Shown here one piece after another: positions 10,285 to 27,658 of a DNA stretch of 58,119 nucleotides. The notes beneath the pieces were generated by a model that was not told the DNA's origin, did not search any database, and was given only the letters and a program-made list of their open reading frames with translations. Source of the stretch: a virus (taxonomy: Duplodnaviria > Caudoviricetes). The stretch's first letter is position 1. Every line of letters begins with the position of its first letter. The DNA is taken from IMG/VR virus record IMGVR_UViG_3300042564_002254, positions 1-58,119 of that record; one strand, 5' to 3'. Position numbers and translations under genes: made by a program.

Positions 10285-10442
10285 CTATGATACAAGGCCC
10301 ATAGAAAGGTGCTGGAAACAAACATCAGCGACAACATAGTCAGCGTGATCTACAACGACATCGTAATGTGTCGCTTCTTTATCGCAAAAAAAGCACTTAT
10401 GTTTTTCCATATATCGATTATATCATAGTTCAAATTAACGAT

Positions 10443-11129
10443 TTAGCAGTTGTCTCCGCTAGAGATAGTCCGATCACTATCAAAACTATCATAACAAATG
10501 CCATAAAGTGTATGTCTTATGCCAGAAGTTACAGGGGTAACTTTATGAGTAAATTCTTTTGTTATTGGTATATTGACAAGCATTCCAGGTTCTGGCTTAA
10601 TAATGATGTCTGGCTTATATTTAAATAGCAATTCTCCTCCAACAAAATCATTATTTAAATATAAAGACCACGCCCCTGTTAGTCCATCATCTATTTGCCC
10701 TGGGTTCCCTTTTTCATGATGCCACTCAAATGCACCATACTTATCAACCCCTTCTTTAAATGGCCAAAAAGATTGAAGGGTTGTGTTTTTTAATAAATGA
10801 TCTGGCAAAGCCATTGAGAGTCTATCTAATAGACCACCATCTTGCCAAAATATGGGGTCTTTGTGCTGTTCATCTTTATCTGTTGGGAATACTGCACTTA
10901 GACTTAGATCGATTCCTCTTGTAGGACACACGGTTCCTTGTGGATGAATATCGTGTTTTATACCAATAAATTTGTTTCTTATTGAAGGTGATCGAGAGGT
11001 TATATACCAGCCATTAGGCTCATCGCAATGTTTCCTTAATTCGGCGGACTCTTCTTCAGTTAAAAAATTAGGTATGTACCAAAGATCTTTGTCTAAGTAC
11101 ACTTTTTGGCTTTCGATAAGTTCTTTCAT
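10443..11129 (-). CDS. 2OG-Fe(II) oxygenase (prolyl-hydroxylase-like)
   Basis: IPNFLT, WHHE, LYLNNDFVGGEL, HKVTPVTSGIR. Confidence 0.85.
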   Translation of the reverse strand: MKELIESQKVYLDKDLWYIPNFLTEEESAELRKHCDEPNGWYITSRSPSIRNKFIGIKHDIHPQGTVCPTRGIDLSLSAVFPTDKDEQHKDPIFWQDGGLLDRLSMALPDHLLKNTTLQSFWPFKEGVDKYGAFEWHHEKGNPGQIDDGLTGAWSLYLNNDFVGGELLFKYKPDIIIKPEPGMLVNIPITKEFTHKVTPVTSGIRHTLYGICYDSFDSDRTISSGDNC

Positions 11130-11142
11130 ATTTATAATTATA

Positions 11143-11844
11143 TCACAAAAGGTTTTCGTTTAATTTCATATTTTTTACCTCTTCAAATACCTTTAGCGCT
11201 AAATCAAAAAGTTCATCTCCGTTTACATGAATCATAATATTATTATATCCATTTTCTTTTATATGTTTAATTATTGTTCTAAATGATTCAATGTCACGAA
11301 CAATAAAAAATAATATCTTTGTTTTATCTGAAGTATCAAGCGTACCACTTACCAGTCTGCCATAATTAACAATATTTGCATCTGCAAGACTGTCCATATT
11401 TGGGCAAATGCTATCTTTCATTCCAGAAACATATGTATAGGGCTTTTTTACATCCCAGTCTTTAAACTTTTCAAGGTAGGAACAAAAAAACTTTTTTCTA
11501 TCCTCAAAGGATGTGGAATCATTAACATCTGAAAAGACTCCTCCAAAAGACTCTTCCCCATCAGTTAAACCAGGAACAAAATTAATTCTAACCCTGTCTT
11601 CTTGTATCAGGTCTAATGATTTTGAAATTGCCAATAGATACTGAGGAGAAATAGTATATGGCCGAACTGCAACCAGATACTTTAACTTTTGATTTGTTTT
11701 AAGAGATCTCGCTATTCTAGTAAACGGATCTGGAACTCCCACGGCGTAAGGTAGAAGCCATCCATAAAACCCAGAATCTTCAAGTAAGTCTGATATATAT
11801 CCTAAATCTTTGTCGGTATGGCGACCAAACCAATATACATTCAT
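11143..11844 (-). CDS. Short luciferase-like (LLM) flavin monooxygenase
   Basis: GF.G.LLP, KYLVAVRP..ISP and RVRINFVPG resemble SsuD N-terminus. Confidence 0.65.
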   Translation of the reverse strand: MNVYWFGRHTDKDLGYISDLLEDSGFYGWLLPYAVGVPDPFTRIARSLKTNQKLKYLVAVRPYTISPQYLLAISKSLDLIQEDRVRINFVPGLTDGEESFGGVFSDVNDSTSFEDRKKFFCSYLEKFKDWDVKKPYTYVSGMKDSICPNMDSLADANIVNYGRLVSGTLDTSDKTKILFFIVRDIESFRTIIKHIKENGYNNIMIHVNGDELFDLALKVFEEVKNMKLNENLL

Positions 11845-12029
11845 AATATGATTATACCAGTCGGCGCAAAAAAGTCTTTAAAGTTCGGCGCAAAATAGAG
11901 GCCATTAAACCACCTTATGCCCTACACGGGCACTATGGTTTACAAACCTTCATATGCTTGTATAGACTTTCGTGAGCAAAGCCTACCCTAAAGTCCCATT
12001 CTTTCTTACAGACAGGACACACTATTGTT

Positions 12030-12278
12030 CTACTCATCCATACCCTTTTCCCAGATTAGTCCACATTTTGTACACATAATTCCTGGCTCTCGCATATACC
12101 AAGTATGGTTGCAGGAACCTACAGTTGGTTTTCGTTTTTCTCTAGATGTGCCATTTTTTAATTGTTGTCTAAAAACACCATTTGGATCGTGAATATGACA
12201 TTTATCTACAGTACGCCATTTCTCAACTTTAAAAGAACAGGGCTTACCCTGTTTAGTTAGTGAACTACATTGTCTCAT
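12030..12278 (-). CDS. Cys/His-rich hypothetical protein
   Basis: C...TK.G.PC...C.IH and CxxC motifs. Confidence 0.55.
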   Translation of the reverse strand: MRQCSSLTKQGKPCSFKVEKWRTVDKCHIHDPNGVFRQQLKNGTSREKRKPTVGSCNHTWYMREPGIMCTKCGLIWEKGMDE

Positions 12279-12466
12279 AGTTTGGCTACATACTGAGCAG
12301 CCATCTTCAAACCTTTAACCAAACCATCGTGGTAGTCCTGGTTCTTAATAACCCTAGTAGTATCCCAAACACGGTAGGATTCCTTGTTTAATAACTCTGA
12401 GATTTCTTCATTAGTCATATATCAAGTATATCCAATTTTGGCGGGGATGTCAAGTATAATGAGTCT

Positions 12467-12787
12467 ATGGATGAAGCAGTACTATACATACTATATAACC
12501 CTATACATAAGGCTGTCAAGGTAGGTATATCAGACATATCAGGAAGAAGGTTTGCAAGCCATAGGACCAAGGGTTGGATACTGATTAAGTATTGGCATTT
12601 TTTCGAACGGGATATGGCAAGAAGAGTCGAATCAGTAGTACTAAAAACACTAAGGGAAAGATATGGTTACTTTCTGGATAAGGCGGATATGCCTCAAAGC
12701 GGATATACAGAGACCTTTGATGCTTCAAAGATAACCCGTAGGGCCTTGATCCGTATGGTCAATAAGGCTATAAGGGATGTATCGTAA
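12467..12787 (+). CDS. GIY-YIG-like (T5orf172-type) nuclease
   Basis: LYIL...VKVGIS...RR..H and GYTETF; leaderless TATAAT promoter. Confidence 0.65.
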   Translation: MDEAVLYILYNPIHKAVKVGISDISGRRFASHRTKGWILIKYWHFFERDMARRVESVVLKTLRERYGYFLDKADMPQSGYTETFDASKITRRALIRMVNKAIRDVS

Positions 12788-12968
12788 TCTTTATATACCG
12801 TGGTTTTTTACTTAAAGAAGTCTATACCTATATACCACTTAAAAAGATACAGGCCAATTTCCCATTCGTGTTTGATCGGATACCCCCAGTTAGCAACATA
12901 GATACCGATTGCATAGTTAGAGGTCATCTTGCCATAGTGTAGTTTCATATACCCATCATATCACATAG

Positions 12969-13022
12969 TTATCCACAGGTCAATATGATGGTTTGGTATA
13001 GTTATCCACAGGTTTATCCACA
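12969..13022 (+). promoter_or_regulatory. Three DnaA boxes
   Basis: TTATCCACA at 12969, 13002, 13014. Confidence 0.75.
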
Positions 13023-13123
13023 TATATTTCTTACTGATAATATTATTAGACACCGTAGAAGTGGAGTGAAGTGGAGGATAGTGGAGTATAGAGCGTTTTT
13101 AAAGAGGGCTTCGTAATCTTTCT

Positions 13124-13810
13124 GACGGCCAAACCTCCTATCCCCAAACCTTATATCCCCCTTATACCACATATCCACATATCTGTCAAACCTTTGTATA
13201 CAGGGTTTGGGCATTATATACCAAACCTTTGTATTTGTCAAGCCCATTTGCTGTACAAAACCCTATATAATTTTGTCCGAATTTGCTCAGAAAATAAAGA
13301 AAACCTTTATAAAAATATATAAAGGTTTGATAAAGTTTTAGAAATCAGGAAATAATTTATAGTGGTTTGTTATAGTGTATATACTATAGGGGATTGGGGG
13401 TTTCATCTTGATCCCCTGGCAAAATCGCCTGGTACGGGGAAAAATTTTCGCCCATCGTAATCTTATTTTCAGAAATGTCATCCGACGTTTTTGGGCGGGG
13501 AGGGAAGAAACACTTAAGAGTAACAACACTATACAACATACCACATAGAGCACCCATTGCTTTATCAAACCCTATAGATTCATGTTCTTCATCGTGTCGA
13601 TGTGAAGGGTTTTGATACATCTTTGCAAAGTGGTGTGGGGCCATGTCTTTATTATACACCTGATATGAAGGTTTGACAAACAAGGTTTGATATGGTATAA
13701 GGTTTGGTACGGGGAAAAGAATTTGTCCTTCGTAATCTAGTTCTGGGGAAAATAAAGGTTTGATCGTAATCTTATTCTAAAGAAGGTTTTGTACCAAATG
13801 TCTGGTTTGA
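13124..13810. repeat. Iteron-like CAAACCTT/AAGGTTTG array around a central palindrome
   Basis: More than a dozen exact or near copies; AAACCTTTATA...TATAAAGGTTT inverted repeat at ~13300-13328. Confidence 0.6.
13384..13644 (-). CDS. Hypothetical protein (MAPHHFAK...)
   Basis: TTGTCA-17-TATAAT promoter with leaderless ATG. Confidence 0.45.
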   Translation of the reverse strand: MAPHHFAKMYQNPSHRHDEEHESIGFDKAMGALCGMLYSVVTLKCFFPPRPKTSDDISENKITMGENFSPYQAILPGDQDETPNPL

Positions 13811-13877
13811 TATGATTTGACGTGCCACGTCCCCAACCCCAGGCTTTTGTCAAGCCCAGGGATTAGAAATAAGATAG

Positions 13878-14183
13878 TTACTCTGCTGCTGCAGCCCCAG
13901 GATTTTTCTTGTTGTAAGCAAAAACCAAGATTGCTCCTAGCGATTGTTCCTCTAACTCATCAACCTCAGCCTCAGTAATCTCTAATAGATTAAACATCAT
14001 ATCAATGCTTTCCTCAATATACTGTTCACCTAGTGGGGTTAGGTCTTTTACCAAACCTTCTGCCACATAGTATGCCATTGGTACACCAATGTCATTGTAA
14101 TCCATAAAGGCACTAAAACTTTCATCCTCTCGGAAGTCAATCCATAGTTGACCTAGTACACCTGTTTTATCTGCGAAGTCCAT
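13878..14183 (-). CDS. Hypothetical protein
   Basis: Acidic 101 aa ORF with AAGGA RBS. Confidence 0.65.
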   Translation of the reverse strand: MDFADKTGVLGQLWIDFREDESFSAFMDYNDIGVPMAYYVAEGLVKDLTPLGEQYIEESIDMMFNLLEITEAEVDELEEQSLGAILVFAYNKKNPGAAAAE

Positions 14184-14406
14184 TTACGGGTCCTTTCATC
14201 TCTAACATAAGTTTATCATACTCTTCCATTGCTGTCAAACTCAAAACCTCTAATCTGTGATAGTTTATAAGTGGTAGGTTTCTTACCATATAATATCCTA
14301 CGCGTTCTAAGTCTACCGCAAAATCTTGTGTAAGGAGTCTGCCTAACTGTTCTGCTGTTTTTGTTTCTTTATTATTGGTTGCCGTTCGTCTTATTGAATA
14401 AGCCAT
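14167..14406 (-). CDS. Hypothetical protein
   Basis: AGGAG RBS. Confidence 0.65.
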   Translation of the reverse strand: MAYSIRRTATNNKETKTAEQLGRLLTQDFAVDLERVGYYMVRNLPLINYHRLEVLSLTAMEEYDKLMLEMKGPVNGLRR

Positions 14407-14501
14407 AGTCGTCTCCTCTATTCCATTGTATCAAAAAAGTAGGGGGAGCGCAAGTCTACGAAAACCTGCGCCCCACCCTGTTAATCTAAGGGACCCATTC
14501 C

Positions 14502-14858
14502 TTAGATCTGCTCAACTAAACTTGGTAGATAAGCGTCCATAAATTTATCAAAGGGCACAGAGACCTTATCAGTAACAGTATTAGTAGTAAAGTCGATGAG
14601 GACTGTTGTTTCTCCTAGGTCCAGCCCATTACCGTCAATTGCATAGATTCCAAAGCCTGTCTCATCCAAGATCGAATCTTGCATAAGATAACTAATAATC
14701 ATACGGGTACCATATGCAGAATCATTTAGCCGTGGCTTTGAATGCTGCAGGGCCATTGCTAGGTCCCGCTGCCATTCAGTCTCACCCCAATGGCTATAGA
14801 GAACTACTCTAGGGCCCTTCTCACTGTCTTGAAATACAAAGTTAATCCGTGCTCCCAT
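14502..14858 (-). CDS. Hypothetical phage protein (LYSHWG motif)
   Basis: MGARINF start after GGGAG RBS. Confidence 0.65.
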   Translation of the reverse strand: MGARINFVFQDSEKGPRVVLYSHWGETEWQRDLAMALQHSKPRLNDSAYGTRMIISYLMQDSILDETGFGIYAIDGNGLDLGETTVLIDFTTNTVTDKVSVPFDKFMDAYLPSLVEQI

Positions 14859-15015
14859 TACTCTTCTCCCTCTACATAGTCCAATACAACAACTGACATA
14901 TCTGCCCAAATTTCTTTGGACAATTGAACTTCATCTTCTTTTAAATCACTAAACATAACGAAGTTCATATGGGCTCCACTAGGTTCGTGAATAAGTTCTA
15001 CTGTGTATTCGTTCA

Positions 15016-15462
15016 TTATCGTAAGTCCACCCAAGTTCTACCTAGTAGTTCAGGGTCTATCTCTTCATCATCTTCTACTTCATTTGTTGGGTTGTCTTTC
15101 ATTATTGTCTCCTCGCAGTTGTGGGTTTCTTCTTCATCAAGTATATCACCGCATAAATCACAAGTCAAGTCAGGCTCTCCAACCATAATCTGAATAGTGG
15201 TATTTTCGGGGAATGGAACTTCAGTAATAAAATAACCAATCCTATTAACAAAGGACCAGCCATTCCATACATAGGTGCCACCGTCGTCTCCGTCCCCATA
15301 GGTCCAGATATGATTAGGGTGTGCTTTCTTTACAAACTCTACCTCTGCTCCATATGTCTCAAACATATGGCCATCAAAGGATGAGTTCTTATCTATATTA
15401 TTAGGGATAGGTTTGTAGGTATCAAACCATTCATCAAAGTCTATCTCAATAAAGTTATCCAT
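15016..15462 (-). CDS. Hypothetical phage protein (FETYG...VNRIGY motif)
   Basis: Intact ORF in early operon. Confidence 0.65.
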   Translation of the reverse strand: MDNFIEIDFDEWFDTYKPIPNNIDKNSSFDGHMFETYGAEVEFVKKAHPNHIWTYGDGDDGGTYVWNGWSFVNRIGYFITEVPFPENTTIQIMVGEPDLTCDLCGDILDEEETHNCEETIMKDNPTNEVEDDEEIDPELLGRTWVDLR

Positions 15463-17262
15463 TAGCCTTAGTCCTATCACTGATAGCAAACGCTAATTGA
15501 TATGTAAGGGCGTATACTTCTACAAAAGCGTCTAAGCGGCCTTCAAGGTACTCATACTCTTCTCCCCGCAAAGCCTCTGACAACTTTGTCTCAGCCTCAT
15601 ACATAAGGTTCTTAAGTTCTCCGTGTAGGATGTCAGTTCCTGACTCTCCCATATCAATTAGTTTCTGTAGTCTTGGGTCTAGTGTTGTATTCATCATAGT
15701 TATATTGTAGCCTCTAGCACTGACAAAAAGTGGTAGCAGGCAAGAATCTGTCCAGTAGTGGAAACATCTTCTAACTCTAAGTCCTTGTACTCATCACAGT
15801 CAAGGTCATCATAGAAGCCCATTTGCTTCTGTAGTTCCTCAGAGTCTTGCTCCAAGGATAGCAGGTGTAGTTTAATATATTCGTGAAATGTGTTTAGGTC
15901 CATAGTATTAATTATACGGGTTCGTGTTGATTTTGACAACTCCCCTTGATGTGAAACTAATCACACTTGGCTGTACCATTGGCTCCTGAGCAGTACGAGT
16001 TACAAAGGTTTGGTAATCGCAGGTACAGGCGGGATCGAAGGAAGGCTCAACAGATGTAGTAATCTCTATAAGAGCATCACACCCTGTACAAACATAACTA
16101 TACTTGGTCCACATTATGAACATACTCCTTTGCCCACTCAGGCGCTTCGCCTTCTACCCAATCTAATTCAACATCTAAGTCTCCACCACCTTCAGGCCAG
16201 CCAGTTGTGACTACTAATTCTGTTCCATCCTCAAAGAAGATTTGCTCAACAATTGAGCGGTATGTGATTTCACGAGATTCAATGTTCATTAGTCCTCTAT
16301 GTATTCTACTGAGATGTTGCCCATTACTTCATCATACTTTACCATAGTATCTATGTCCTCAGCAAATCGAGCCATTAGATAATCTACTTTATCTTCCGTG
16401 CTCATATCAGGTGGACCGTATAGTTCAAACCCTATATCATTAGACATTGCATCATCTATATCAATGGTTTGTTCAATACTGATTCTAACTTTCATTCAAA
16501 GTGCCCCTCTGCCATTAGTCCTTCAAGTAGGTCTTTAGTTTTCCACAGGCTATTCCATAAGAATTGATCGTTCTCAGGATTAGTGGTCTTTAGCACGGAA
16601 GCCAAAGACTGAATCATATCATCAGCATCTACCTCTTCATATCCTACTAATGGCATTAGCCTACCTCTATCCCTGCGTAATGTGCGATAGTATTAAGAGT
16701 AGTGTGGATATGGCAGTCGCAAGCCTCTCCACCCATATTTTCCTCAAACTCTAAGTGAGAGTAATTGCTTTCATATATTTCATTGATTAGGTCGTCAATG
16801 GTATTCATTTGGTATGCCACTCACCTAATTCAGGGATAAACACATTTTCCTCTATATCCCATTGAGCGTCATCCCAACTAAGTTCATCAGTCATAATTTT
16901 ACCGATTTCATCTATGAAGGTTTGCATAACGGCTTCTGCGTGGTGTCTATTCTTAGCCTTGATATTTGTAATAGAGATAGCAAGGTCGCAAGAATAGTAA
17001 TCTGCATACATTTCAGGGTTTTCTATTTGGTCTGTTTCTAGGGTCATACATATTCCTTTTCGTAGGCTGGGTGGGATGTTACTACTAATTCTAGCATTTC
17101 GTCAGGGTATCTGTCAAGTACCCAATTAAGAGCCTGTCCAGCAGTCTTAAAGTCAGAGGCAGTGGTACTAGTACCATAACCATTAATGGTTGCTTCCCAG
17201 CAGTCAATACCACCAGGTGAGACGGAGTAGTTCATTTCATATATTGCCACTTGTTTTGTCAT
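15455..17262 (-). other. Run of about nine small acidic hypothetical early genes (15455-15697, 15700-15903, 15908-16123, 16098-16289, 16289-16495, 16805-17047, 17044-17262 and two shorter ORFs)
   Basis: Overlapping stop/start packing downstream of promoters at 15704 and 17269. Confidence 0.6.
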
Positions 17263-17440
17263 ATCTTAATTATAGCCTAGGGGTCTGACAAATGGAAGGT
17301 TTGGGGAAAAAATATTGCCTATCGTAAAGAAATTTTGGGAAAAATATCACCCTATCGTAAAGTTATTTTAGCAGAAATGTTTTGTGATATAGGTCACAGC
17401 CGACGTCCGAAATTTTTATGCATTGCATTTTTATTTATTG

Positions 17441-17514
17441 CGATCCGTACGGGACTTGAACCCGTGACCTCTACCGTGACAGGGTAGCGAACTAACCAAC
17501 TATTCTAACGGACC
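17441..17514 (-). tRNA. tRNA-Asp(GUC)
   Basis: CTACC-CT GTC AC-GGTAG anticodon arm; GGTTCAAGTCC T arm; GGTCCGT/ACGGATC acceptor. Confidence 0.9.
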
Positions 17515-17567
17515 AAATGGTGAGCAGTTTTTATTCTTACTCAGGAATCTTTATTTAGTTTTTTTTA

Positions 17568-18581
17568 TTATGCGTTAGTTAATTCACGCACAATCTTTAG
17601 TAAGCGATTTTTTTCTGCTGTGATAGCAGGGTCAAATCCGCTTGCGCTTGCAAGGATAGATTCGTTAGAACCACCACGAGCAGAGCGGTGCCAGTCAAGG
17701 CGCTCAGTAAGTGCATTAAACGCACCCCACGCATTACCAGCAATCATTCCGTTAAACTCGCCTGTGTAAATGTCGTTGATAACATCAACCTTGTTTTCCC
17801 ACTTCTTGAATGCACCCTTAGAATCCTTTTCAGGCTTTGGGTATGCAGCAAGAATAATGTCGTTAAACATCTTAGCAGAAACTTCCTGTTGAATCATAGC
17901 GTTAGCCATAACATCAAAAGAATCCATATACTTATGAGCAAGACCAAGAGTCTCACGAGCAACTTGAATCTTACCTTGTGCAGTCTGTGTATGGCGAATC
18001 TTGAAAGATTGCTTGATGCCATTTTTCTTGCGTGTAGTATTAAGTGCAAGATTGAGAGTGTTAGCGCACACAACACGAACGGGTGTTATGCTTGCTTGAA
18101 TAGCGATTGAGCCATCGTGTGATGTGTTGATAAGTAGATAAGTCTTAACCTTATCAGCAACGCCAGTAGGGTCAAGAACTGTTTCACGCTCTAGGGCTAG
18201 TGCACCGAATACAACACGACCGCCCTTGATTGAACCAGCAGTCTCCCAACGACCACCACCGTCAAGAATATTATCACCGAATGAAAATAAATCTTCATTC
18301 TGCATTGGGTGATAACGCTCACCAACGACACCAAGAATGTCGGTCTGTGTGTTATCTGTAGGATTAGTACGCAAGACATATTGATATGCCTTGTCGCTTG
18401 TTAGATGTGAGGGAGTTTCCAAATCCTCTAAGCGAACATTCCAACCGTTAAGGCTTGCAGCCTGTAGCATTTCTGCTGTTGTTTTTTCCTCGGTGAATAC
18501 TGTTCCCAATCCGTGCCAAGCAGGTTCACGGAATGATGCGAATGAGGTTTTGCCGTTTTGTGTTTCTAAATCGTGAGCCAC
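17568..18581 (-). CDS. DUF932 / TIGR03299 phage-plasmid protein
   Basis: PAWHGLG, ETAGS..GG, YLL..TSHDGS, TPVRVVCANT, RHT motifs. Confidence 0.88.
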   Translation of the reverse strand: MAHDLETQNGKTSFASFREPAWHGLGTVFTEEKTTAEMLQAASLNGWNVRLEDLETPSHLTSDKAYQYVLRTNPTDNTQTDILGVVGERYHPMQNEDLFSFGDNILDGGGRWETAGSIKGGRVVFGALALERETVLDPTGVADKVKTYLLINTSHDGSIAIQASITPVRVVCANTLNLALNTTRKKNGIKQSFKIRHTQTAQGKIQVARETLGLAHKYMDSFDVMANAMIQQEVSAKMFNDIILAAYPKPEKDSKGAFKKWENKVDVINDIYTGEFNGMIAGNAWGAFNALTERLDWHRSARGGSNESILASASGFDPAITAEKNRLLKIVRELTNA

Positions 18582-18804
18582 GATATTCCTTCTTTCTGTT
18601 GTGTTGATATTTCAAGTATAGCAGGACTGACTGACATATGCAAATCGGTATAGTTAATCATAGACAAATTGGACATTTCATAAAAGATCACCCCTAGACT
18701 ACGGCGTGTCGATTTGACAATGACTGGTCGGCGGGACGTCCAAAAATTTGAGGGAATTTATTGAGCAGTTTAGCGATATGCTCAGATCTGTTAGTAGCCC
18801 CCTA

Positions 18805-19242
18805 CTAAATATCTACTCTGTCCACACTGGATGATGAGTAAATTACTCCTTCAGGTTCTGATATAGAATCAAAATCAATTTCGTGAATTAAATTAATTGC
18901 TGACTCTTCATCTCGTGCATTGACTGTAATTGAATATAGAACTGTGACTTCCAATTCAAATTCTTTTGTTAACTCAAAACCGCAAATGTCTGCAATTTCT
19001 TGTCCTTCTGATTGATTAATGGTTCCATTTTCTAATGCTTCTAAGGTCCACTCTTGCATTTCATTACGCATACGGTTGCGCTCTGCAGACTCATCAGTGG
19101 AGCGAATAACTGTGTTGGCGTGTGCCGATTGCAATTGCTTTACATATTCCTCAAGTCGTGCAACATTTAGAGTTGCCTTAGCAAGAGAATCACGAAGAAA
19201 CTCTTCTGTTGCGTGTTCTACTGTGTTTGTTGTTTGGTCCAT
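18805..19242 (-). CDS. Hypothetical coiled-coil protein
   Basis: Own promoter at 19276 and RBS. Confidence 0.7.
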   Translation of the reverse strand: MDQTTNTVEHATEEFLRDSLAKATLNVARLEEYVKQLQSAHANTVIRSTDESAERNRMRNEMQEWTLEALENGTINQSEGQEIADICGFELTKEFELEVTVLYSITVNARDEESAINLIHEIDFDSISEPEGVIYSSSSVDRVDI

Positions 19243-19616
19243 TGGGGGCCTCTTTCTGTTTGTTGGTTTAATTTAATTATACTGGTTACCACTGACAAAT
19301 TTAGGTGAGCAGTTTATACACTTACTCAGGTGATAGAGAGGCAGGATCCTTCGTCTGGAACCCCTCTAATTATTTACTTAGAGAATGTATAGGTATAGGC
19401 TAGGTGCTGAGACTTATACTTAGCAATCTTATTTGCAGTTGCTACAAGTGTGTGTGCTTTTACGGCGTTCTTGTCTGCAAATTGTAGAATAGTTTTCTTG
19501 CCTTGTGTGATAGTGAAGTTGTACATTTTAATTCCATTTCTGTTTCGTAGGTTTGTGTGAGCAGTTTTATATCATACTCAGGATAGTTAGGAGAGACTCT
19601 GAGCCTCCTGCCCTAA

Positions 19617-20042
19617 TTATAGGTAGCGAGCCACCGCATTGTAGGTGGAAGTATTTACTACTTCCTCATCTGTCATCTTGAGGATACGAATTGCGTTAGC
19701 AATTTCCTCTTTCTGACTTTCATATTCGTGTCTGTGTAGAACTACGAAATCCTTAGTTGGCTCTGTTGGCAGTTCCTTTTCTGATACTGCTAGGTCAAAG
19801 TCAATGTTTAGGTTGTTGTTCCAAGAACGATATGAAGTGCGGAAGTTGGTTGCCTTCTTGATGTTTGCTACCGCATAGTCAATAAGTTCCTTTTTCCACT
19901 TCTCATAAGCCTTCTGATACTTTGCTTCATTTGCTTCTTGTGAAGTCCAATCAACTTCTAGTTTAGCAAGTGCGCCTTCTAGTGCCTTGATTACCTTTGG
20001 TGTTGCGATTTTAACTGAGATTGCTTTACCTCTTGTTGCCAT
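19617..20042 (-). CDS. Hypothetical protein
   Basis: Own promoter at 20076. Confidence 0.7.
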   Translation of the reverse strand: MATRGKAISVKIATPKVIKALEGALAKLEVDWTSQEANEAKYQKAYEKWKKELIDYAVANIKKATNFRTSYRSWNNNLNIDFDLAVSEKELPTEPTKDFVVLHRHEYESQKEEIANAIRILKMTDEEVVNTSTYNAVARYL

Positions 20043-20139
20043 TGGGTTTCTCTTTTCTTTTGTGGGTTAGTTTCTATTATAGGGGGTGGGTCTGACAAGT
20101 TGAGCCTTTTTAATTCTTGCTCAGGAATAAGTAATTAGA

Positions 20140-20307
20140 TTACTTTGCTGTCCAAGTTGTCCAGCGTGTGTTGCCATTTACATCTAACTTAACACGAACT
20201 GTTTCGCCTGTCTTGCTAGGTGCGATTTCCAAGATAGTGCCTGTTACCTTTGACTTCTGTGAAGTGTAGAGGTCTCCGACCTTATATGTTGCGGTTGCTA
20301 CTGTCAT
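20140..20307 (-). CDS. Small hypothetical protein (55 aa, SH3-like pattern)
   Basis: MTVATATYKVGDLYTSQKSKVTGTILEI...; promoter upstream, pseudoknot downstream. Confidence 0.6.
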   Translation of the reverse strand: MTVATATYKVGDLYTSQKSKVTGTILEIAPSKTGETVRVKLDVNGNTRWTTWTAK

Positions 20308-20656
20308 TTGTTTCTCTTTTCTGTTTGTTGGGCTGGTTTGCCTTATGTATTAAGTATAGCAAAAAATCTAAGAAATAACAAATCCATTTCCAAATAATCT
20401 CAAAATGTGAGACATTATCTATGTGATTTGAGTCACTAGGTTTTGTGCGTATAATACAATTTTAGCAGAAAAATCTCAAAAATACAAATCCTGCCTCAAA
20501 ACCTGGGGGTAATAAAGATCATATCGTAAACCCTGCGTGTCGGCTTGACAAATAGGGGTGAGGCCGACGTCCCGTTTTTCCAGGGATTTATCCACTCCCA
20601 CCTAAAATAGAAATCATTACTATTAGTATCATTAGTAAATAGAACCAAGGACTCAT

Positions 20657-21391
20657 TTACTTTTTACTCGCAGAGAAAAGAATATCACTCTTAGAGTATA
20701 CACATAACTTACAAGAAACGCAAGCGCTACCCTTAGTAGAGATAAGGGGAATTTGTTTATTATTCTCAGGACACTTAGCAGCAGGTCGCCCGATCATTTC
20801 TTTCATATCTGCTTGACCTATAGCAAAGTTCTTAGCAAGATAAGCAAGGCGAACACCTTGATTAATTTTTAAGTCAACACCAATTTTTACATTCTCACTA
20901 TCAGTGCTAAAGTAAAGAGACAAGTTAGGAATATCCTTAAGAATAAGAGCAGCGGACTTTACGCGGGTATATACCCAGAATTGAACATCCGAATGCTTAT
21001 CAATAACTACTTTCCAGGCATATGTATAAGTATCATTAAAGAAATCTCCGTCCCAGTGGATACGGAATAACATCGGTGCGTCTTTCTTGATACAGTCAGC
21101 CTTGAAATCAGAAATCATCTCATTAAGTAAGCGGACCATAGTTTCGCCGTCTGCGTCTTTAAGCAAGGACCAATTGTGTAGCAGATTAACTTTTACTGAG
21201 GGGAATACTTTTTCAAGTTTTCCTGCGTAGCAAACGCTTTCACAAACACTAGTGGCACCAGGGCACGAGAAAGCCTTTCCAGCAGGTAGGCCGAATGTAT
21301 TTGCGATTGCTGCTTGCTTTCCATTTTTTGTGACAAGGTTAGCCACCTTTCTATCATTAGATCTTTTTAGTTTAAGTGTATTAGTAGTCAA
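20657..21391 (-). CDS. GP88-family protein (Cys-rich, actinophage gp88-like)
   Basis: FGLPAG..SCPGA...C...CYA, FRIHWDGDF, W.YTR, C..C..C. Confidence 0.75.
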   Translation of the reverse strand: MTTNTLKLKRSNDRKVANLVTKNGKQAAIANTFGLPAGKAFSCPGATSVCESVCYAGKLEKVFPSVKVNLLHNWSLLKDADGETMVRLLNEMISDFKADCIKKDAPMLFRIHWDGDFFNDTYTYAWKVVIDKHSDVQFWVYTRVKSAALILKDIPNLSLYFSTDSENVKIGVDLKINQGVRLAYLAKNFAIGQADMKEMIGRPAAKCPENNKQIPLISTKGSACVSCKLCVYSKSDILFSASKK

Positions 21392-24300
21392 GGCCTAGAC
21401 TCATTTCTAGAGCAATGTCCTCATTATAGGTAGCGGACATTTCTTCTAGTAAGCAATGAGTACATTTTTCTTCATATGCGTCAACGGCATTTTCTTGACA
21501 AGAGGGGCAAGTTGTTGAGTAGTACTCATCAAACATTTCATCTTCATACATATTGGCCATTAGGGGGTCTCCTTTGTTTTCTTTAATTCTATCAGTTGGG
21601 ACTGACATTTCCTACGGTTGTAGGCTTTCTTTGAAGGCACGGCAGAGGCGGCATTAGAGCGTCTTAACTCCATTAGCCTGCGTAGTTCCTCATTTGTTTT
21701 CTTCATATAGCAATACTAACACACATCTGATAAAAATGTCAAATCTAACTCGTGTGATTAAAATCACAAAAAATTTTCCAGCGCCCAGGATCGGGGAAAA
21801 GAAAATAAATCATCTTAAAGATATTTTATAGGGGTTACTGGTGAGTATCCCCAAGTTATCCACAGACACGCCCGACCGCGACGTCCAAAAATTGCAGATT
21901 TTTATTTCTGCAATCTTGGTTTTTATTTATTCTTTTTCTATTTCGTCTAATAATTCCCAAAGTACTGGTTCTAATTCTAACGCTACTGCGTTTAATTTTT
22001 CTTGTAGTGTTTTCATTTATTTAACCAACCCTTCGAACCATTGAGAGAATCCACCATTAAAGAAAACTTCCTCACCTTTGTGATTAGTAAGCGTTGCACT
22101 TACTAATTCGGTTTCGTCGTTAACTTCTAGAATCTCTTTAACAAGATAAGTTTCGTTATTGGAAATAAATATTTTTCCAACATTGATTTTATTAATTAGT
22201 GATAGTGACATTAGTTTTCTTCTTTCATTAGTAGGTATGAGTTGTTTAGTGGGCGAGAATTGTTAGAGAACATAGCCTCTACCATAGCCTTATTTTTTTC
22301 TGATTGAGCAATTCTTTTTTCTTGTTGCTCTTTAAGAATTCTATCAAAGGTACTCATTAGTCAAAGTATCCAAATTCTCCTATACAAGAACCACAGATAC
22401 CTGAAAATTCTTGTTCGTGTTTTTCGCAATAAGCGACTTTCTTTTTTTCATTAGTGTTAGTCATTTTTGACCTAACCTTTCTTAGTGAGAGTTTCTCACT
22501 TTCTTTATACTGAAAGTCTACCACGCAGGGCTGACAAATAGCCAGCGTGTCGAGTGGTCTGACTAGTCAAAGATTTGTGATAAACATCACATAAGTTATC
22601 CACAGGCTGTGGGCGACACGCCCGACCGCGACGTCGCATTTTTATTCGGGGAAGTGAATAAAAATACTTTTAACTATTCCTCATAGTCAATAAAAACATA
22701 CAACGGAATCAAATCAGTATAAGCATACTGAGTAAATTCTTTTTCACCAAATTCGTTTTGAGTTTCTACATCATAGTTATCTCCAGTAGAATCACTTATG
22801 ATAGAAATAACCTGAACGATATCGTTGTCAATTTTTATTAGATCATCAATCATTAACTGACCTGGTGTTATATTGTCAGCGTGTAAAAGTTCCATATCTA
22901 ACATTGTATCAGACATTTAGTTCTCACAATCCGAGCATATGATATCGCCATCAAATAAGTGATAGCCTGTTTCCTCATCTACCTCTATTTTACAACTCCA
23001 ACACTTTAGCATTATTCCTCATCTCCATACTCATCTGCTGGGTCAATGAACCAAGATAAGTGGTGCTGCTCAACAATTGCCCAAGCGGGTGCAGTAGTGC
23101 GACCTTTATAGGTTATGCCTTCTGGAAGTGCAATTGGCGTATCGCTTTCTTCTGCATACATAGCATCAATAGCATCAATGCAAGGTTGTACCATAGAAAG
23201 TGGTACGGGCGGATAGTGATTACCTTGCAAGTGATACGCTATCTGAGTTTCTAAATCTAATACTGAGTCTGCTAATCCAATTACTGTTACGCTTCCCATT
23301 TACTTACCCCCTACAATTCCTGAGCGATACAATATTTTTGTATGCATCTTGCCTGACGGCTCTGATAAATTAACTGTTCGGTATTCATTAGCAAATCCGT
23401 GGTCAATAAACTTTTGATAAACTTCCACGGCAGATAAAGCATCAGCATAGCGACCAACCCAATTAGGCTTATTCTCGCTATCGTTAGTAGTAGTTACTGA
23501 GTATAGGTATTCGTTCATTAGTTAGCCTCTTTCGTAGTAAATAGTGCGCCTTCATTAAGTAAGCCCACTTCCAAGTTAAATAGTTCATCAGGTGTAGCAG
23601 ACTCCAAGTCTACCCACCCTGCGCCTTCGTTGTCAATTCTAAAAATCTCTATGTATCCCATTAGTTTTCTACCTTTACTGCTACTGTGCGACATACTGTC
23701 TTTCCAAAGTTATTAGGGCGCACTTCTACCAAATAACTTTCGCAACCCTGATACCATACGGCTTTAGGGTGTATCTCTGCTGAGATAATTTCTCCAGTTA
23801 AAGTATTGGAGCGATACTGTGTTCCTACTAGTAGGTGTTCTATTGTATAGACATTTGCTGACATTTGCCAACCTCTTTCTTTTTGTTGATAATTCTATCC
23901 TACCATAGGGGTCTGACATTTCTGCTAGACACGCCCAAAGTAAATAGACTTTCTTTTTCCTTACTATGTAAGTCTAGCCTATTAGACAGAAAATATCAAC
24001 TTACTAGCCAGTAAATCCAAATAGTGAGACGCTCAACCTATGTGATAAATCTCACAACACTAAGCCTGTGGATAAATCTGTGGGCGACACGCCCGACCGC
24101 GACGTCCCAAAAAATTGGAAGCAGTTTTAAATCTTGCTTAGGATTTTTATTTATTTTTTAAGTCGTTCAGTTCGCAAAGCAACTGACAGTCTGCGAATTT
24201 CTTTTTCTAATTTAACATTGCGTTGCCAAAATGCGATCATCATTCCAACAGAACCAGCAAGAGCAATTACAATTGCGATTAGTGTTCCAGTATCTAAAAT

Positions 24301-26553
24301 CATTACACACCCGCCAATTCTTTATAGCAAGCAATAGCAAATTTAGTTGCGTCAAATCTTGGATTATCCGTTTCGAACATTAGAGAAAATTCATCTACCA
24401 AATCAGCAAATAGCATTTCCCCTTGTTCGTCAAAAACAGAGGTAGCAAAATAATTGCTAAGAATTTCAGCAGTGGCAACATAGTCTTTACGGGTCATCAT
24501 TATGCGACCACCTTTAGAATTGCATAAGAACCATTTTTATTTATGTCCTCAATTACTGGAGTTAATGCAGGCACTAACAGTTCCTTGAGCATACCTTCAA
24601 GCATTGCAATTTGTGAGAGTTCATCTAGTTGCAAGAATCGTTGAGAAATTGGATGGGTTTCATCAAATTCGGTTACGAAGTTTAGAGAGTGATTTACTTT
24701 TATCATTTATTTTATTTCCTATTCTTTAGTTTGAGTTTGTTAGTAAGCGAGTGCCACGAATTGTGCCACTTAGACCGAGAGTATCGCAAGCGATTTTTAC
24801 AGATACGCCAACAGGTAATTGAGTTGGGTAAGTTGATACGAATTGAGCAACCGCACCTTTAGAGGCAAGGTTGATTTTTTTAGTAGAACCATTAAAGGTT
24901 TCTAGTGTTACAGTGTAAGTCATTTTTAGACTTCCTTTCATTTTTAAGTGATAAGACTATCCTACCACTAGGGGCTGACATTTTAGGGCATTTATTCGCT
25001 AGGCTCAATGTGATACTGGTCACATTTATTTGCTAGGCTCACTACCTTATTAGTCATTATTTAATTGTTATAGTAGCAATACTAGCAGACCAAACCCAAA
25101 AAGTCAAGGCGACACGCCGTATAATTAATGTGATTTGCGTCACACGGGACGTCAAAAAATCGCAGTTTTTATTCTGCGATCTTTTTTTATTTATTTATTT
25201 TTTTGTATAAGAAATCCCAAGCCTTACGGCATAAAAGAATTGACTTACAGTTATCACAACAGATAACTCCGTGAGGGTTTAACTCAAGGTCATAGATGTC
25301 TATGCTAGTGCTAACCGCACCGCATACTGATTTAATTGATACAAAAGTACTCATTTAGTGTAACTACCTTTCTTAATTGCCTCATCTAGCATTTTTGCTA
25401 AATCAGGGTGAATTCCTAATGCTGGATTTTCCCAGTAGGTTTCTAATTCTAATTTTTCTACAAAATCTTTCATTAGTACTACTCCCAACTTCTAGTAGTG
25501 GCATACACTACGCTATTGCGTGGAGTGTATTCTATTTCTACTAGATTAGTTTCTAGTATTGTACCTGTTAAGGCTACGAGGTCTAAGTAATTGTTAGCCT
25601 CAATTTCTGAGTTAAAGATAACTCCTAGACAAGTGCTAAACTCTTTCATTAGAGGATAGCGTGGGTTAGTATCTAACTCCACACGATAGGATAACTTGTA
25701 TCCTTTTACTTTTAGTGAATTCATTGTGAATTCCTTTCTTTATCAAGAACCTTTCTTGATTTTCTTTATACTAGTATTCTAGCAGGGGGTACTGACATTT
25801 AGGGGTGTTTTTCGGGCGTGTCGGAAAAGTATTTTTGTGATACTAATCACATAGGTTATCCACAAGTTATCCACAGGCACGTCCCATTTTTGCAGGGGAA
25901 TTAAATTTATTCTTTTACGAATAAATAAAATCCACTTGCTAAACAGATCATAGAGAACCAGAATAGTGCGTTACCACTTACAAAAAATGTTTCATAGAAA
26001 TTCATTATGAATAAATCCTTTCTCCGTAGTATTCGTCAAAATCTTTTATAGTCATTAGACCTTTATACTCATTACAGAAACCACAAAACTTGGTTTCGCT
26101 AGAATAGATTTTTTCACAAAAGCAACAAATTAGTTTAGTCATTAGTTAGACACTTTCCAATCTGTCCACATAGGTAGACGCTCAGGGTCGGTATCGTTAT
26201 ACCAACGCTCTATATTCTGCTCACAATTTTGGCAGAAAGTAAATTGCTCATCTCCTACATTAGAGATAGCAGATTTCATAGGGTTATGCTCAACGCATTT
26301 TGTTATTTCATTTAGTGTTATCATTTTTGACAACCTTTCTTTTTTTATTAGTTAATTTTATTTTATTAAGTTTTTTTATTTTATTAGCAGTAGCAATACT
26401 CGTTATCGCAAGCGCAAGAGCGTTGCTCTGGAAGTGGTAAGCACATTACGCAGGTTTCCCACGCTGTAACTCTTTCACACTTAGAGCATTTTACATATCC
26501 TAAGTATTCGTTCATTAGAGGGCTATTACCCTGCTCAAATATTCTGTTAGTCA
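21381..26553 (-). other. About 20 small hypothetical early genes in 1-5 gene operons (e.g. 21381-21560, 22017-22211, 22674-22916, 23012-23299, 23300-23518, 23661-23864, 24303-24500, 24500-24706, 24726-24923, 25479-25724, 26142-26333)
   Basis: Each operon follows a repeated promoter cassette and an AGAAAG/AGGA RBS. Confidence 0.6.
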
Positions 26554-26748
26554 TTTCTGACTCCTTTCTAGTTTAATCACTTTGATTAACTTTCTTTATA
26601 CTGTAAGTGTAGCAGGGGGGTCTGACATTTAGTAGGGTATAAAAGGTATAAATCGGACATTGTGATGCGTATCACATATGATACAAGTCACATTGAGGGG
26701 GTGCGCTGAGCAGGGCTTATGTAGCAGGTTATCCACAGGTTATCCACA
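21856..26748. promoter_or_regulatory. DnaA boxes in intergenic cassettes
   Basis: TTATCCACA at 21856, 22596, 25856, 25867, 26729, 26740; reverse copy at 24067. Confidence 0.75.
21865..24106 (+). repeat. Identical 21-mer GACACGCCCGACCGCGACGTC x3
   Basis: Copies at 21865, 22615, 24086. Confidence 0.85.
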
Positions 26749-27085
26749 GGCACGTGCTATGTGATGCATATCACACACGACACGCCTATAGGGTGCTTGA
26801 CTTTTAGGGGTAGATGTGTTATTATACTAGTATAAGAAAAATTAAATAGAGATAAAAGGTTATGAGCCTACCAAATAAGATAACGAATTGTTATATGAGC
26901 GTAGCGAATAAGTAACCTAAATCACATATCCCACGCTCCACATAGTGAGACTACTGGTTAGTATACTAGACAGTACGGGAAATGTATGTTAGTATTACTA
27001 CATACAAAAAATTAAATAATAGAAATCCTAGTTGAGCCTCTGAGCCTACCAAATAAACCGATTATCGGGTGAGCGTAGCAAATAA
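24992..27085. repeat. Three repeat-hairpin-repeat units of TGAGCSTASCRAATAA
   Basis: 24992-25041 (-), 26863-26911 (+), 27041-27085 (+). Confidence 0.75.
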
Positions 27086-27658
27086 GAGCAAATAACACTA
27101 GGCAACAAAAAAGGTATCAAATAGATATCGCATTAAAAGAAAGGTTCACTAAATATGAACACTATATATAACGAAATAGCAGAAGAGTTTGGCTCATCTG
27201 CACTATCAGTAAATAACCCTACTAACTATGCATTGACACTACGCCAATGCGCTATTCTAAACGATAAGTATGGGTTTGATAAGGCTAAGGTTATCGTTGA
27301 GCGATATATGGCATTATCTAAGGTAGGTAAGTAAATATGAATCCATTTACATCAATAATTGATTGGCTAGATGAGAATGCAGACTATGCCCCTATAGGTG
27401 CATTCATAGGGTTAGGTATAGCCATAGCCCTAGCCTTTATTTTCGGGGGTAACTAATGAGCCTACCTATTATACTAATAGCCTTGTCAGTGCTAGGCACT
27501 ATACTAGTCCTTATCCCTACCATACTAGATAAGGATAGTGAATACTAATATGCACATATATCTATGCTCACAATGTAGCACCCTTGCGGTAGTTACACAA
27601 AAAGGAAAACAAATAACTATTAACCCCTGCTTATGCACAAAAGAAAAGAGATAAATAA

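Follow-up and report, generated by a model that had tools for sequence, protein, structure and literature searches.

The window analysed here (the whole stretch of 58,119 bases) covers half of a ~110-kb phage that is abundant in lake water and has a G+C content of 38% (range 36-40%). Judged by sequence and placement, 12 TGTCAG-N10-TAnnnT sites, all within a block of small genes, make up a genuine promoter class of their own, while a 13th match in the block (23842-23863) is doubtful. The best-supported reading, to which we give a little better than an even chance, is that these promoters depend on PafBC of the host. The case for PafBC comes from the identity of the motif and from its context.

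An exact pattern search of the window returned 14 matches to TGTCAG-N10-TAnnnT, compared with 0.90 expected from 100 dinucleotide shuffles (maximum 4; 0/100 shuffles reached 14). Thirteen of them fall within 15704-27505, 12 on the minus strand and one, divergent, on the plus strand (27484-27505). With a single exception, the block matches (12/13) sit 6-51 nt before a start codon on the same strand and are all oriented with that gene, and a Shine-Dalgarno-like stretch separates motif and start codon at most of these 12 sites. At two sites (17269 and 15704) the arrangement is leaderless, the ATG being the 7th base past the -10. Thus, the 12 copies, the invariant spacer and the orientation with the downstream gene reported in the first-pass annotation were all confirmed, and one more block match (23842-23863) was found. 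Its statement that the structural region contains no copy also held, as the exact pattern had no match in the tail-fibre/structural part (28-58 kb). Hexamer variants with one mismatch were not enriched in the motif block (3/14).

The sole rightward site, TGTCAG-N10-TATACT at 27484-27505 (+), is promoter-like and diverges from the leftward block; the complete relative G001 carries the same kind of site at the syntenic place (2982, +). On the minus strand, a TGn extended -10 accompanies the sites at 26606-26627 (51 nt upstream of the ATG of ORF 26384-26554), 25776-25797 (51 nt upstream of ORF 25479-25724), 24959-24980 (17 nt upstream of ORF 24726-24941), 23897-23918 (upstream of ORF 23661-23864), 22515-22536 (50 nt upstream of the ATG of ORF 22357-22464), 21586-21607 (25 nt upstream of ORF 21381-21560 and gene 20657-21391) and 18615-18636 (33 nt upstream of the DUF932 gene). 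The minus-strand sites at 20076-20097 and 19276-19297 each lie 33 nt upstream of an ORF (19617-20042 and 18805-19242, respectively). The two leaderless sites, also on the minus strand, are 17269-17290 (ORF 17044-17262) and 15704-15725 (ORF 15455-15697), the latter being the last of the block. When 62 distinct upstream regions corresponding to the 21586-21607 site were aligned, the best-kept letters were AAATGTCAGTC, TG and TA.AAT; variation was seen in the spacer and at the third base of the -10. The doubtful match at 23842-23863 (-) lies within the first codons of ORF 23661-23864; its 22-mer was found identical in G001, and coding constraint may be the cause of this conservation. The isolated match outside the block, at 6199-6220 (-), is antisense to ORF 6169-6477 and looks like a chance occurrence.

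The motif is widely kept among relatives. In 80 related IMG/VR loci, 728 matches to TGTCAG-N10-TAnnnT were counted in 1.35 Mb, with at least two in each locus. For the window and the 80 loci together, 742 sites had the N10 spacer versus 2-28 at each of N6-N9 and N11-N14, and 64% of all TGTCAG hexamers (742/1153) belonged to a full motif. The 112 sites at N15 in the same set are probably due, on our reading of the profile, to a second TAnnnT formed at the junction past the -10. An unbiased profile, built from the full set of 825 unique TGTCAG contexts without presupposing a -10, peaked at positions 17, 18, 20 and 22 (T.74, A.79, A.64 and T.76) and at G15 (.54), which is a -10 at N10 with TGn. 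Within the sites, the T and G of TGn were present in 64% and 71%, respectively, and the -10 was near consensus (TAnAAT). Upstream of the hexamer the profile was nearly flat. A TTG 16-18 nt from the -10 was absent from 389/562 unique sites and present in 173/562 (31%), the latter being above compositional expectation. A start codon 6-7 nt past the -10, as in leaderless genes, was observed at two window sites and at 51/562 family sites. The complete relative G001 (111,870 bp) carries 12 distinct sites in a single block that runs across the record ends; elsewhere there are just 2 stray matches. The architecture that emerges is a TGTCAG without variation, placed at -28 to -23, in most cases TGn, and a TAnAAT -10, mostly without a -35.

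According to PMC8635444, the PafBC motif is 22 nt long, tGTCgg(N10)tA(N3)T, with its 5' part at -23 to -28; GTC is read by PafB R46/R50, and the promoters combine a SigA -10 with the lack of a -35. The phage motif is identical to the consensus given there in core, spacing and position, so the resemblance to the PafBC site noticed at first pass now stands as a formal match. The bases preferred after the phage hexamer (T/A, then C/G, C/G) also resemble those of cellular sites, e.g. TGTCAGACCCC and TGTCGGACCCC. The cellular consensus, as printed in that paper, is degenerate at three hexamer letters (lower case), whereas the phage hexamer is invariant at all six, which could mean a different, stricter reader. 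PafBC action needs ssDNA (PMC11804915), and this requirement is awkward for the very first genes. A strong TGn together with TAnAAT may be sufficient without any activator.

A second promoter class, missed at first pass, adjoins the block. Eight canonical leaderless promoters, TTG(A/T)C(A/T/C)-N17-TA(T/C)..T with an ATG 6-7 nt further on, lie at 7437-15939, all on the minus strand, with first hexamers beginning at 15939, 13679, 12983, 12453, 10061, 8616, 8201 and 7465. Only 0.155 would be expected against the 8 observed (200 dinucleotide shuffles, maximum 2), and 101 were found in the related loci L001-L080. Because this canonical -35/-10 class coexists with the TGTCAG sites in the phage, TGTCAG appears to mark a distinct, differently regulated set; because it adjoins the block, the TGTCAG class need not fire first.

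The first-pass annotation had also allowed for a phage mimic of PafBC and suggested looking for a WYL protein in the rest of the genome. We searched the window and four complete ~110-kb relatives (G000-G004; estimated completeness of the relatives 100%), and neither turned up. These five records had no match to WYL (PF13280; the positive control matched in 7 genomes), no PafB-like sequence at E<=10, no match to Sigma70_r2 (PF04542) and none above cut-off to Sigma70_r4 (PF04545; best E 0.038), the controls for the latter two matching in 10 and 14 genomes, respectively. MotA_activ and AsiA (PF09114 and PF09010) gave no match at E<=0.1 in the same records, a weak negative run without a positive control. 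A small novel phage adaptor would escape such family searches.

As for the phage itself, a WhiB-like transcription factor gene (2746-3030, +; PF02467, E 7.3e-12 in the six-frame search and 1.3e-10 with the protein) is present in 5/5 records searched, and whiB is an actinophage marker (PMC10202952, PMC10914622). DnaE is 52-55% identical to Streptomyces phage proteins. The DUF932 protein gene (17568-18581, -; Pfam PF06067, E 5.7e-47) has its homologue in gene 2 of the terminal repeat carried by Streptomyces phage Bmoc (Bmoc 1301-2305 and 123123-124127; 51.7% identity over 344 aa). Similarly, the phrog_1392 protein gene (20657-21391, -) is a homologue of Bmoc gene 8, also in the terminal repeat, and of the gene 88 product of mycobacteriophage D29, the identity being 54% with D29 (46764-47474) and 49% with Bmoc (4905-5624). 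WhiB and this kinship with cultured Streptomyces/Mycobacterium phages (DnaE, DUF932 and phrog_1392; 49-55% identity) place the phage among the actinophages, with Streptomyces phages (Stanwilliamsviridae) as the closest cultured kin by protein similarity. The first-pass annotation drew on mycobacterial promoters and on M. smegmatis; this is no mycobacteriophage, however, but a lake-water phage, and its host is not Mycobacterium. Synteny links the ~11-kb motif block to the direct terminal repeat of Bmoc (11,063 bp), and the genes near it code for many small proteins without known function. This synteny, the sole basis for the word 'early', suggests an early 'host-takeover' role of the block. Bmoc (132,885 bp), the closest cultured relative, has only 3 matches to the TGTCAG motif, which is chance level, and the ordinary promoters of its homologous block count against PafBC dependence.

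Contrary to the first expectation from 36-40% G+C, the predicted host is an actinobacterium. WhiB, the 49-55% identity to Streptomyces/Mycobacterium phage proteins and the leaderless canonical promoters make a PafBC-bearing host plausible. Sampling the class to which an actinobacterial reference belongs, we found PafB in 376/401 genomes. An order with small, streamlined genomes (1.2-1.5 Mb, 39-50% G+C) was taken as the candidate host, the choice being based solely on genome size, G+C and habitat. The pafB-pafC tandem was present in 5/5 small genomes checked, and PafB of a 1.2-Mb genome (39% G+C locus) aligned to M. smegmatis PafB (7p5x_AY, E 2e-33) with the equivalents of R46 and R50 both kept. 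Across 61 genomes of this order, TGTCRG-N10-TAnnnT-N6/7-RTG occurred 229 times versus 26 for the reversed control (summed from the table), and the genes directly downstream of such sites in small-genome actinobacteria include a DinB-type polymerase and DEDDh exonucleases. Among the matches listed, the TGTCAG variant made up 113/150 in the small-genome order versus 33/150 in the class-wide sample (hand counts); A at hexamer position 5 is confounded with low G+C. PstS gave no host signal (best identity 38%), nor did WhiB (0/401 genomes at E<=1e-12).

If the promoters depend on host PafBC, the sites would be read by host RNA polymerase that carries the housekeeping sigma and is adapted by the host WYL activator ('sigma adaptation'). 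The helix-turn-helix of PafB would read GTC of the -26 element, and PafC would contact sigma region 4. The ~11-kb block of small genes would be driven gene by gene from its TGTCAG promoters, and its expression would be coupled to the PafBC-activating ssDNA signal arising from DNA entry, nuclease attack or replication. No activator would be required at the adjoining canonical -35/-10 promoters. That the host is a low-G+C actinobacterium, that the block is expressed early, that PafBC binds and that ssDNA is the trigger are inferences. If all this is true, the phage may switch on the genes of the block through the host's own DNA-damage alarm system.

The strictness of the phage hexamer, greater than that of the cellular consensus in PMC8635444, would suit an adaptor of an undescribed family, encoded by the phage or brought in with the virion, that reads the -26 element in the manner of T4 MotA/AsiA, to which that paper itself likens PafBC. 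The canonical promoters (7.4-15.9 kb) would then be the true early class that makes the factor, and the TGTCAG block would be delayed-early or middle; two spatially separate promoter classes on one strand and the many small proteins of unknown function encoded nearby are in keeping with such a scheme. We nevertheless consider it rather unlikely, since the adaptor would have to arrive by convergence at precisely the core, spacing and position seen in the host PafBC site, the candidate host genomes themselves use the same site, and the window and four complete relatives gave no WYL, PafB-like, sigma r2/r4, MotA_activ or AsiA match (MotA/AsiA without a control). The presence of TGn and a -10 close to consensus could instead point to activator-independent extended -10 promoters, in which TGTCAG is a spacer operator for a phage or host repressor or timing protein. 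Extended -10 promoters can function without a -35, and the 'stoperator' sites of L5-type mycobacteriophages are asymmetric and take a fixed place in many promoters. However, the site occupies, to the base, the position of a known activator element, and the cellular genes of the same architecture in the candidate hosts are DNA-damage genes, activated through the element in studied species. Moreover, the nearest kin are phages of lytic type that have long terminal repeats, and a repressor gene was not identified, so we regard an operator as quite unlikely.

Two canonical phage promoters (13679 and 15939) have TTGTCA as their -35, which raises the question whether TTGTCA is an ordinary -35 in the motif as well, paired with a second -10-like TAAAnT 17 nt downstream, so that the sites would be canonical promoters in another register. 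The base before the hexamer is T in 43% of sites, and TAnnnT stands at positions 23-28 in 81/223 of these, but it is A in 57%, and the invariant G6 falls outside a -35 hexamer. Positions 23-28 are also far less informative than 17-22 in the unbiased profile, and the ATG of both leaderless cases fits the N10 -10; this register is very improbable. Hardly credible is the idea that the motif is no promoter but a repeat for packaging, recombination or replication or a relic of duplicated intergenic modules. The block does span the assembly ends of G001 and corresponds to the Bmoc terminal repeat, yet the orientation is always with the downstream gene at promoter-like distances to start codons, the spacers differ among sites while TGTCAG, TG and TA..AT are kept, and plain promoters occupy the same places in the homologous Bmoc intergenic regions.

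The preferred reading, dependence on host PafBC, can be set beside several known systems. Like the block, the Bmoc terminal repeat consists of small leftward genes in a row that have individual promoters, and it contains the two shared genes, DUF932 and phrog_1392, in the same order. It differs in that its promoters are TTGnnn-N17/18-TAGACT with a -35, whereas the lake phages have the -26 type instead, and in its length of 11,063 bp versus a 99-bp end repeat in the G001 assembly. By this comparison, the lake phages appear to have exchanged Bmoc-type promoters for the -26 type. The 'host-takeover module' of SPO1 is a terminal-repeat early module comparable to the Bmoc repeat.

With PafBC (RecA-NDp) promoters, the phage sites share the GTC hexamer at -28 to -23, N10 and a SigA-type TAnnnT, and apparently also the lack of a -35 at most sites and leaderless use, with the predicted start 6-7 nt past the -10. 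They differ in being clustered, a dozen per block, before small genes of unknown function and not repair genes, in an invariant hexamer (TGTCAG) where cellular sites are degenerate, and in that a strong TGn and a ribosome-binding site in the leader are present at most of them. In T4 middle promoters (a MotA box at -30 and a -10), too, the -35 is replaced by an element nearer the -10, which is read via an adaptor on sigma region 4, a comparison drawn in PMC8635444. Here, the element differs in sequence and position, no MotA/AsiA homologue was found in the records searched (no control), and the host itself would supply the adaptor. Phages that tie into the SOS response of the host via LexA/RecA use the repressor-based switches of temperate phages. 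They resemble the arrangement proposed here in coupling phage expression to a host DNA-damage sensor, whereas the lake phages would represent an activator-based class, in a lytic-type phage and acting at infection.

The 58,119-base window contained 14 matches to TGTCAG-N10-TAnnnT, against a mean of 0.90 expected from 100 dinucleotide shuffles (maximum 4; 0/100 reached 14). Thirteen of the 14 clustered within 15704-27505 (the TGTCAG block), of which 12 lie on the - strand, while the remaining one (27484-27505, + strand) points the opposite way. The match at 23842-23863 falls inside the opening codons of an ORF, which makes it a doubtful promoter, and the lone match at 6199-6220 is antisense to an ORF. 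For the other 12 sites, a same-strand start codon was found 6-51 nt downstream, usually with a Shine-Dalgarno-like stretch in between; at sites 17269 and 15704 the ATG begins at the 7th base after TAnnnT, which is a leaderless-gene arrangement. The first-pass annotation had described copies oriented with the downstream gene and placed before starts, and had seen none in the structural region. Both statements held, the latter with no match among the tail-fibre and other + strand genes at 28-58 kb. Between the last leftward and the sole rightward TGTCAG promoter lies a stretch of ~850 bp (26628-27483) with no convincing ORF, which could be the site of an origin or of a physical genome end.

Close relatives of the protein encoded at 20657-21391 were confirmed on at least 575 IMG/VR stretches, and 80 IMG/VR loci, in which these relatives are 81-92% identical, were retained. 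The 80 loci (1.35 Mb) gave 728 further motif matches, with a minimum of two in each locus. Across the window and the loci the spacer was fixed, with 742 sites at N10 and 2-28 at N6-N9 and N11-N14; the invariant spacing claimed earlier extends to the relatives. N15 spacing gave 112 sites, a count that, as read from the site profile, probably comes from a second TAnnnT at the junction after the -10. As many as 64% of all TGTCAG hexamers in the window and loci belong to the motif, and the runner-up hexamers at the same architecture were far behind (TGTCAT 65, TGTCGT 51, TGTCGG 25). Variants of the hexamer with one mismatch showed no enrichment in the block.

The profile of 562 unique sites read A-W-W-TGTCAG-(T/A)-S-S-c-n-n-a-T-G-n-TA-n-A-A-T, including an extended -10 with T14 in 64% and G15 in 71% of them. 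When sites were gathered by TGTCAG alone (825 contexts), the downstream information maxima fell at 17, 18, 20 and 22 and in no other register. The profile 5' of the hexamer was nearly flat, yet 173 of the 562 sites have TTG at a -35-like distance, which is above chance. Phylogenetic footprinting 5' of 20657-21391 was consistent with the motif, though blurred because the upstream gene extends to the promoter. A search of viral_contigs with ATGTCAG-N8-TGnTAnAAT gave, among the matches listed, 0/80 scanned loci with at least three sites, a result that has no bearing on other phage families.

A second promoter class was observed directly downstream of the block, where eight TTG(A/T)C(A/T/C)-N17-TA(T/C)..T promoters, each followed by ATG after 6-7 nt, occupy the - strand at 15939-7437. 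Shuffles gave 0.155 such canonical leaderless sites, and 101 more were present in the related loci. The canonical class is spatially apart from the TGTCAG class. Housekeeping promoters of leaderless genes are a hallmark of actinobacteria, and evidently the host polymerase reads a normal -35 and the phage exploits such promoters. Because canonical -35/-10 promoters occur in the same phage, the TGTCAG promoters represent a separately regulated class and not the local standard form; with the canonical class present, the TGTCAG class need not fire first. Contigs from four lake metatranscriptome runs span much of 15-28.5 kb at 90-99% likeness; starts, strand and level are not readable from them, and the libraries possibly contained DNA.

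The position of the block was compared in G001 (111,870 bp), one of the four complete relatives, in which 13 of 15 motif matches lie at 104335-111870 and 1-2982. Two of the 13 are one site duplicated by a 99-bp assembly end repeat, and the G001 block therefore consists of 12 distinct sites across ~10.5 kb. All of them point leftward except the last, which points rightward, the same as in the window. In Bmoc, a Streptomyces phage of the Stanwilliamsviridae and the closest cultured relative, homologues of the DUF932 gene (17568-18581, - strand) and the phrog_1392 gene (20657-21391, - strand) keep the order and orientation seen in the window. Both lie in an exact direct terminal repeat of 11,063 bp, which holds about twenty small leftward genes, each with its own promoter and terminator. 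The TGTCAG block therefore corresponds to this terminal module of Bmoc. The host-takeover module of SPO1 is an example of a terminal module, and by analogy we infer that the TGTCAG block would be expressed early and serve in host takeover.

Although the two modules are alike in homologous genes, order and direction, they differ in their promoters. Those of Bmoc are ordinary, with a -35 (TTGnnn-N17/18-TAGACT), and its genome (132,885 bp) has only three TGTCRG-N10-TAnnnT matches, with 0 in the repeat. Thus, the lake lineage has swapped promoter type in a homologous module. Within 1-10400 of the Bmoc record (NC_055842.1), 13 ordinary TTGnnn-N17/18-TA(A/G)(A/G)(A/C)T promoters were located in the terminal repeat. 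Five of the 13 have nGTCnn exactly at -28 to -23 (binomial P 2e-6; GTC frequency 1.8%), which may be a remnant of, or a step toward, a -26 element in promoters that keep their -35.

The window is the whole IMG/VR record, which is estimated to be about half complete; the related records that are rated complete measure 109-115 kb. Its G+C of 31-41% speaks, at first sight, against mycobacterial kinship. The DUF932 protein is 52% identical to Streptomyces phage proteins, the phrog_1392 protein shares 54% identity with the gene 88 product of mycobacteriophage D29, and the DnaE-type polymerase of G001 shows 52-55% identity to Streptomyces phages of Stanwilliamsviridae. A WhiB-like protein is encoded in 5/5 records searched, and whiB serves the field as an actinophage marker according to excerpts of two papers (PMC10202952; PMC10914622). 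The kinship of DUF932, phrog_1392 and DnaE together with WhiB points to an actinophage. As for habitat, 18 lake-water metagenome runs under 18 study codes contain the window sequence (0.87-0.96 of sampled words).

A T4-like cyanophage or cyanomyovirus was also considered, with the review PMC2984593 as background, since low G+C combined with genes for PstS, Hsp20 and 2OG-Fe(II) oxygenase had suggested one. This idea was rejected because PstS and its cyanophage counterpart share only ~30% identity, because no Gp23 was detected in five relatives by a search without positive control, because the complete relatives are ~110 kb, and because the kinship is with actinophages. Nucleotide searches against the phage collection gave nothing useful. 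PstS (5049-6083, + strand) and Hsp20 (4431-4847, + strand) are better known from marine cyanophages and occur here in an actinophage; among the actinobacteria sampled, no PstS exceeds 38% identity to that of the phage. Another feature is a tandem array at 48728-56564 (+ strand), in which ten ORFs encode 188-288 aa each. Eight of the ten match each other by blastp at 23-40% identity, and a 2OG-Fe(II) oxygenase domain was found in 4/4 tested ORFs of these eight. Four tRNA genes (Arg-TCT, Met-CAT, Glu-TTC, Asp-GTC) lie on the - strand at 6951-8274 and 17440-17514, one of them within the TGTCAG block immediately 3' of the DUF932 gene.

Several searches were directed at the host. PstS had no relative in genome_contigs and gave no host signal among 401 class genomes, in which the best identity came from 2-4-Mb genomes; the protein atlas returned family-level neighbours only. 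WhiB gave nothing against the 401 genomes at E<=1e-12, an overly strict cut-off, and its alignment in genome collections returned only lake phage contigs in unrelated freshwater MAGs and one distant Quadrisphaera WhiB. Three contigs of this phage family in genome_contigs (L091, L092, L093) sit in MAGs labelled Chitinophagaceae, Acidimicrobiaceae and Beijerinckiaceae. Their WhiB has 68-80% identity to the phage WhiB, and they are probably mis-binned phage DNA, with MAG labels that are no guide to the host.

To look for a phage-encoded reader of the sites, the window and four complete relatives were searched with protein families in all six frames. These searches detected no WYL domain (control positive in 7/14 named genomes), no sigma region 2, no sigma region 4 above cut-off, no PafB-like sequence at E<=10, and neither MotA nor AsiA (search without positive control). 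The phage mimic of PafBC that the first-pass annotation had allowed for thus found no counterpart in these five records. For the host side, an actinobacterial reference genome was reached via the distant WhiB match, and its PafB and PafC were identified against the solved structures 7p5x, 9fnd and 6sj9. PafB was present in 376/401 genomes sampled evenly from the class of the reference genome; class-level tallies include genomes flagged unpublished (G013, G021, G030, G036, G038, G042, G049), and the PafB tally also G269 and G310, whereas every sequence or match cited singly comes from other genomes. About two dozen of the sampled class genomes are 1.3-1.5 Mb. A small-genome order (61 genomes sampled, 49 of 1.2-1.5 Mb and the others of 1.6-2.2 Mb; loci of 39-51% G+C) is a candidate host lineage, judged by size, G+C and habitat alone.

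A pafB-pafC tandem was seen in 5/5 small genomes checked, and the PafB of one small genome with a 39% G+C locus aligned over its full length to M. smegmatis PafB with both arginines kept. TGTCRG-N10-TAnnnT-N6/7-RTG occurred 229 times in the 61 small-order genomes, against 26 for the reversed pattern (sums from the table). By hand count, TGTCAG was present in 113/150 matches listed for the small-genome order and in 33/150 listed for the class-wide sample, mostly larger genomes. Among the genes directly behind the leaderless sites in small genomes were those for DEDDh exonucleases, a DinB-type polymerase, a small protein rich in cysteine, and DUF3263; CarD followed one cellular site with a short leader, and RadA followed one in a 59% G+C small genome. 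Streamlined actinobacteria of the freshwater type thus possess the activator, with its DNA-reading residues kept, and place the phage's variant of the site before damage genes. In 1.3-Mb actinobacterial genomes, leaderless TGTCAG-N10-TAnnnT promoters were also clustered in a lower-G+C island, at G271:C1:420-432 kb (L108, L113, L118, L123, L128) and G301:C1:420-457 kb (L119, L124, L129). They precede a DNA methylase, a HATPase_c_3 protein, a trypsin-like peptidase, a CAAX-type protease and a TPR protein, and the island looks like a variable, defence-like one under PafBC-type promoters.

On balance, host PafBC is probably the reader of the TGTCAG sites. It is the simplest account, since the phage class copies the site of the activator in core, position and spacing, and it is strengthened because the phage has no detectable activator of its own and the probable hosts carry one. 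Host reading rests on motif and context, from which PafBC binding is predicted with somewhat better than even confidence; the third of sites with TTG at the -35 position speaks against it. A dedicated phage adaptor, which we consider unlikely, would likewise fit the strict hexamer and the strong extended -10, as would activator-independent promoters bearing an operator, which seem less likely still. TTGTCA-N17-TAnnnT as an ordinary register is very improbable, although a minority of sites can be read so.

If host PafBC is the reader, a reservation concerns its ssDNA requirement, which raises the question of supply at the start of infection. By excerpts of PMC11804915, PafBC is activated by ssDNA bound at its WYL domains; conjecturally, such ssDNA could arise from linear DNA entry, from resection by host nucleases, or from replication. 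We tentatively suggest, at a little under even confidence, that a very abundant lake-phage family may have turned the promoters of its terminal module into perfect copies of host PafBC (-26/-10) promoters, through which the ssDNA alarm of the host would fire the first counter-measures. The same alarm appears also to drive the variable, defence-like islands in these bacteria, and PafBC might additionally be titrated by the dozen high-affinity sites that each phage genome brings in.

What is known of PafBC and sigma adaptation comes solely from the cellular response to DNA damage, chiefly in mycobacteria. A full-text literature search, judged on titles and abstract openings, found no description of PafBC-type promoters on a phage. 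The promoter type is hence known, and at that same depth its use by phage, as a class driving a whole terminal module in an abundant uncultured family, was not found in print. If true, no earlier case of sigma adaptation in a virus would precede it, and it would represent a new coupling of phage gene expression to a host alarm and a new mode of phage timing, in which an ssDNA-sensing host activator is borrowed instead of a repressor such as LexA. It would provide natural consensus-strength PafBC promoters, which the in vitro system available for M. smegmatis (PMC11804915) could test with no need to culture the host, and a signature by which uncultured phages could be connected with actinobacterial hosts and their host-takeover genes recognized. 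Given the IMG/VR stretches and lake-water runs involved, the hosts concerned would be among the most common bacteria of fresh water.

The RecA-NDp motif is worded tTGTCRgtg-8nt-TAnnnT. The PafBC regulon and motif tables of M. smegmatis were reportedly given by Müller et al. in 2018, a study that PMC6789036 and PMC12848934 cite, and Rafique et al., also cited by PMC12848934, are said to have addressed pafBC and mycobacteriophage resistance in 2025. In excerpts of PMC8635444, the in vivo PafBC motif is tGTCgg(N10)tA(N3)T, in which the 3' part is the SigA -10 and the 5' part lies at -23 to -28; PafBC promoters are without -35, arginines 46 and 50 of PafB read GTC, and PafC contacts sigma region 4 in what is called 'sigma adaptation'. 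The comparison to the PafBC motif made in the first-pass annotation agrees with this published consensus: the phage motif is identical in length, spacing, GTC core and kind of -10. It differs from PafBC promoters in that all six letters of the hexamer are invariant, in having A for G at the fifth letter, and in its strong TGn.
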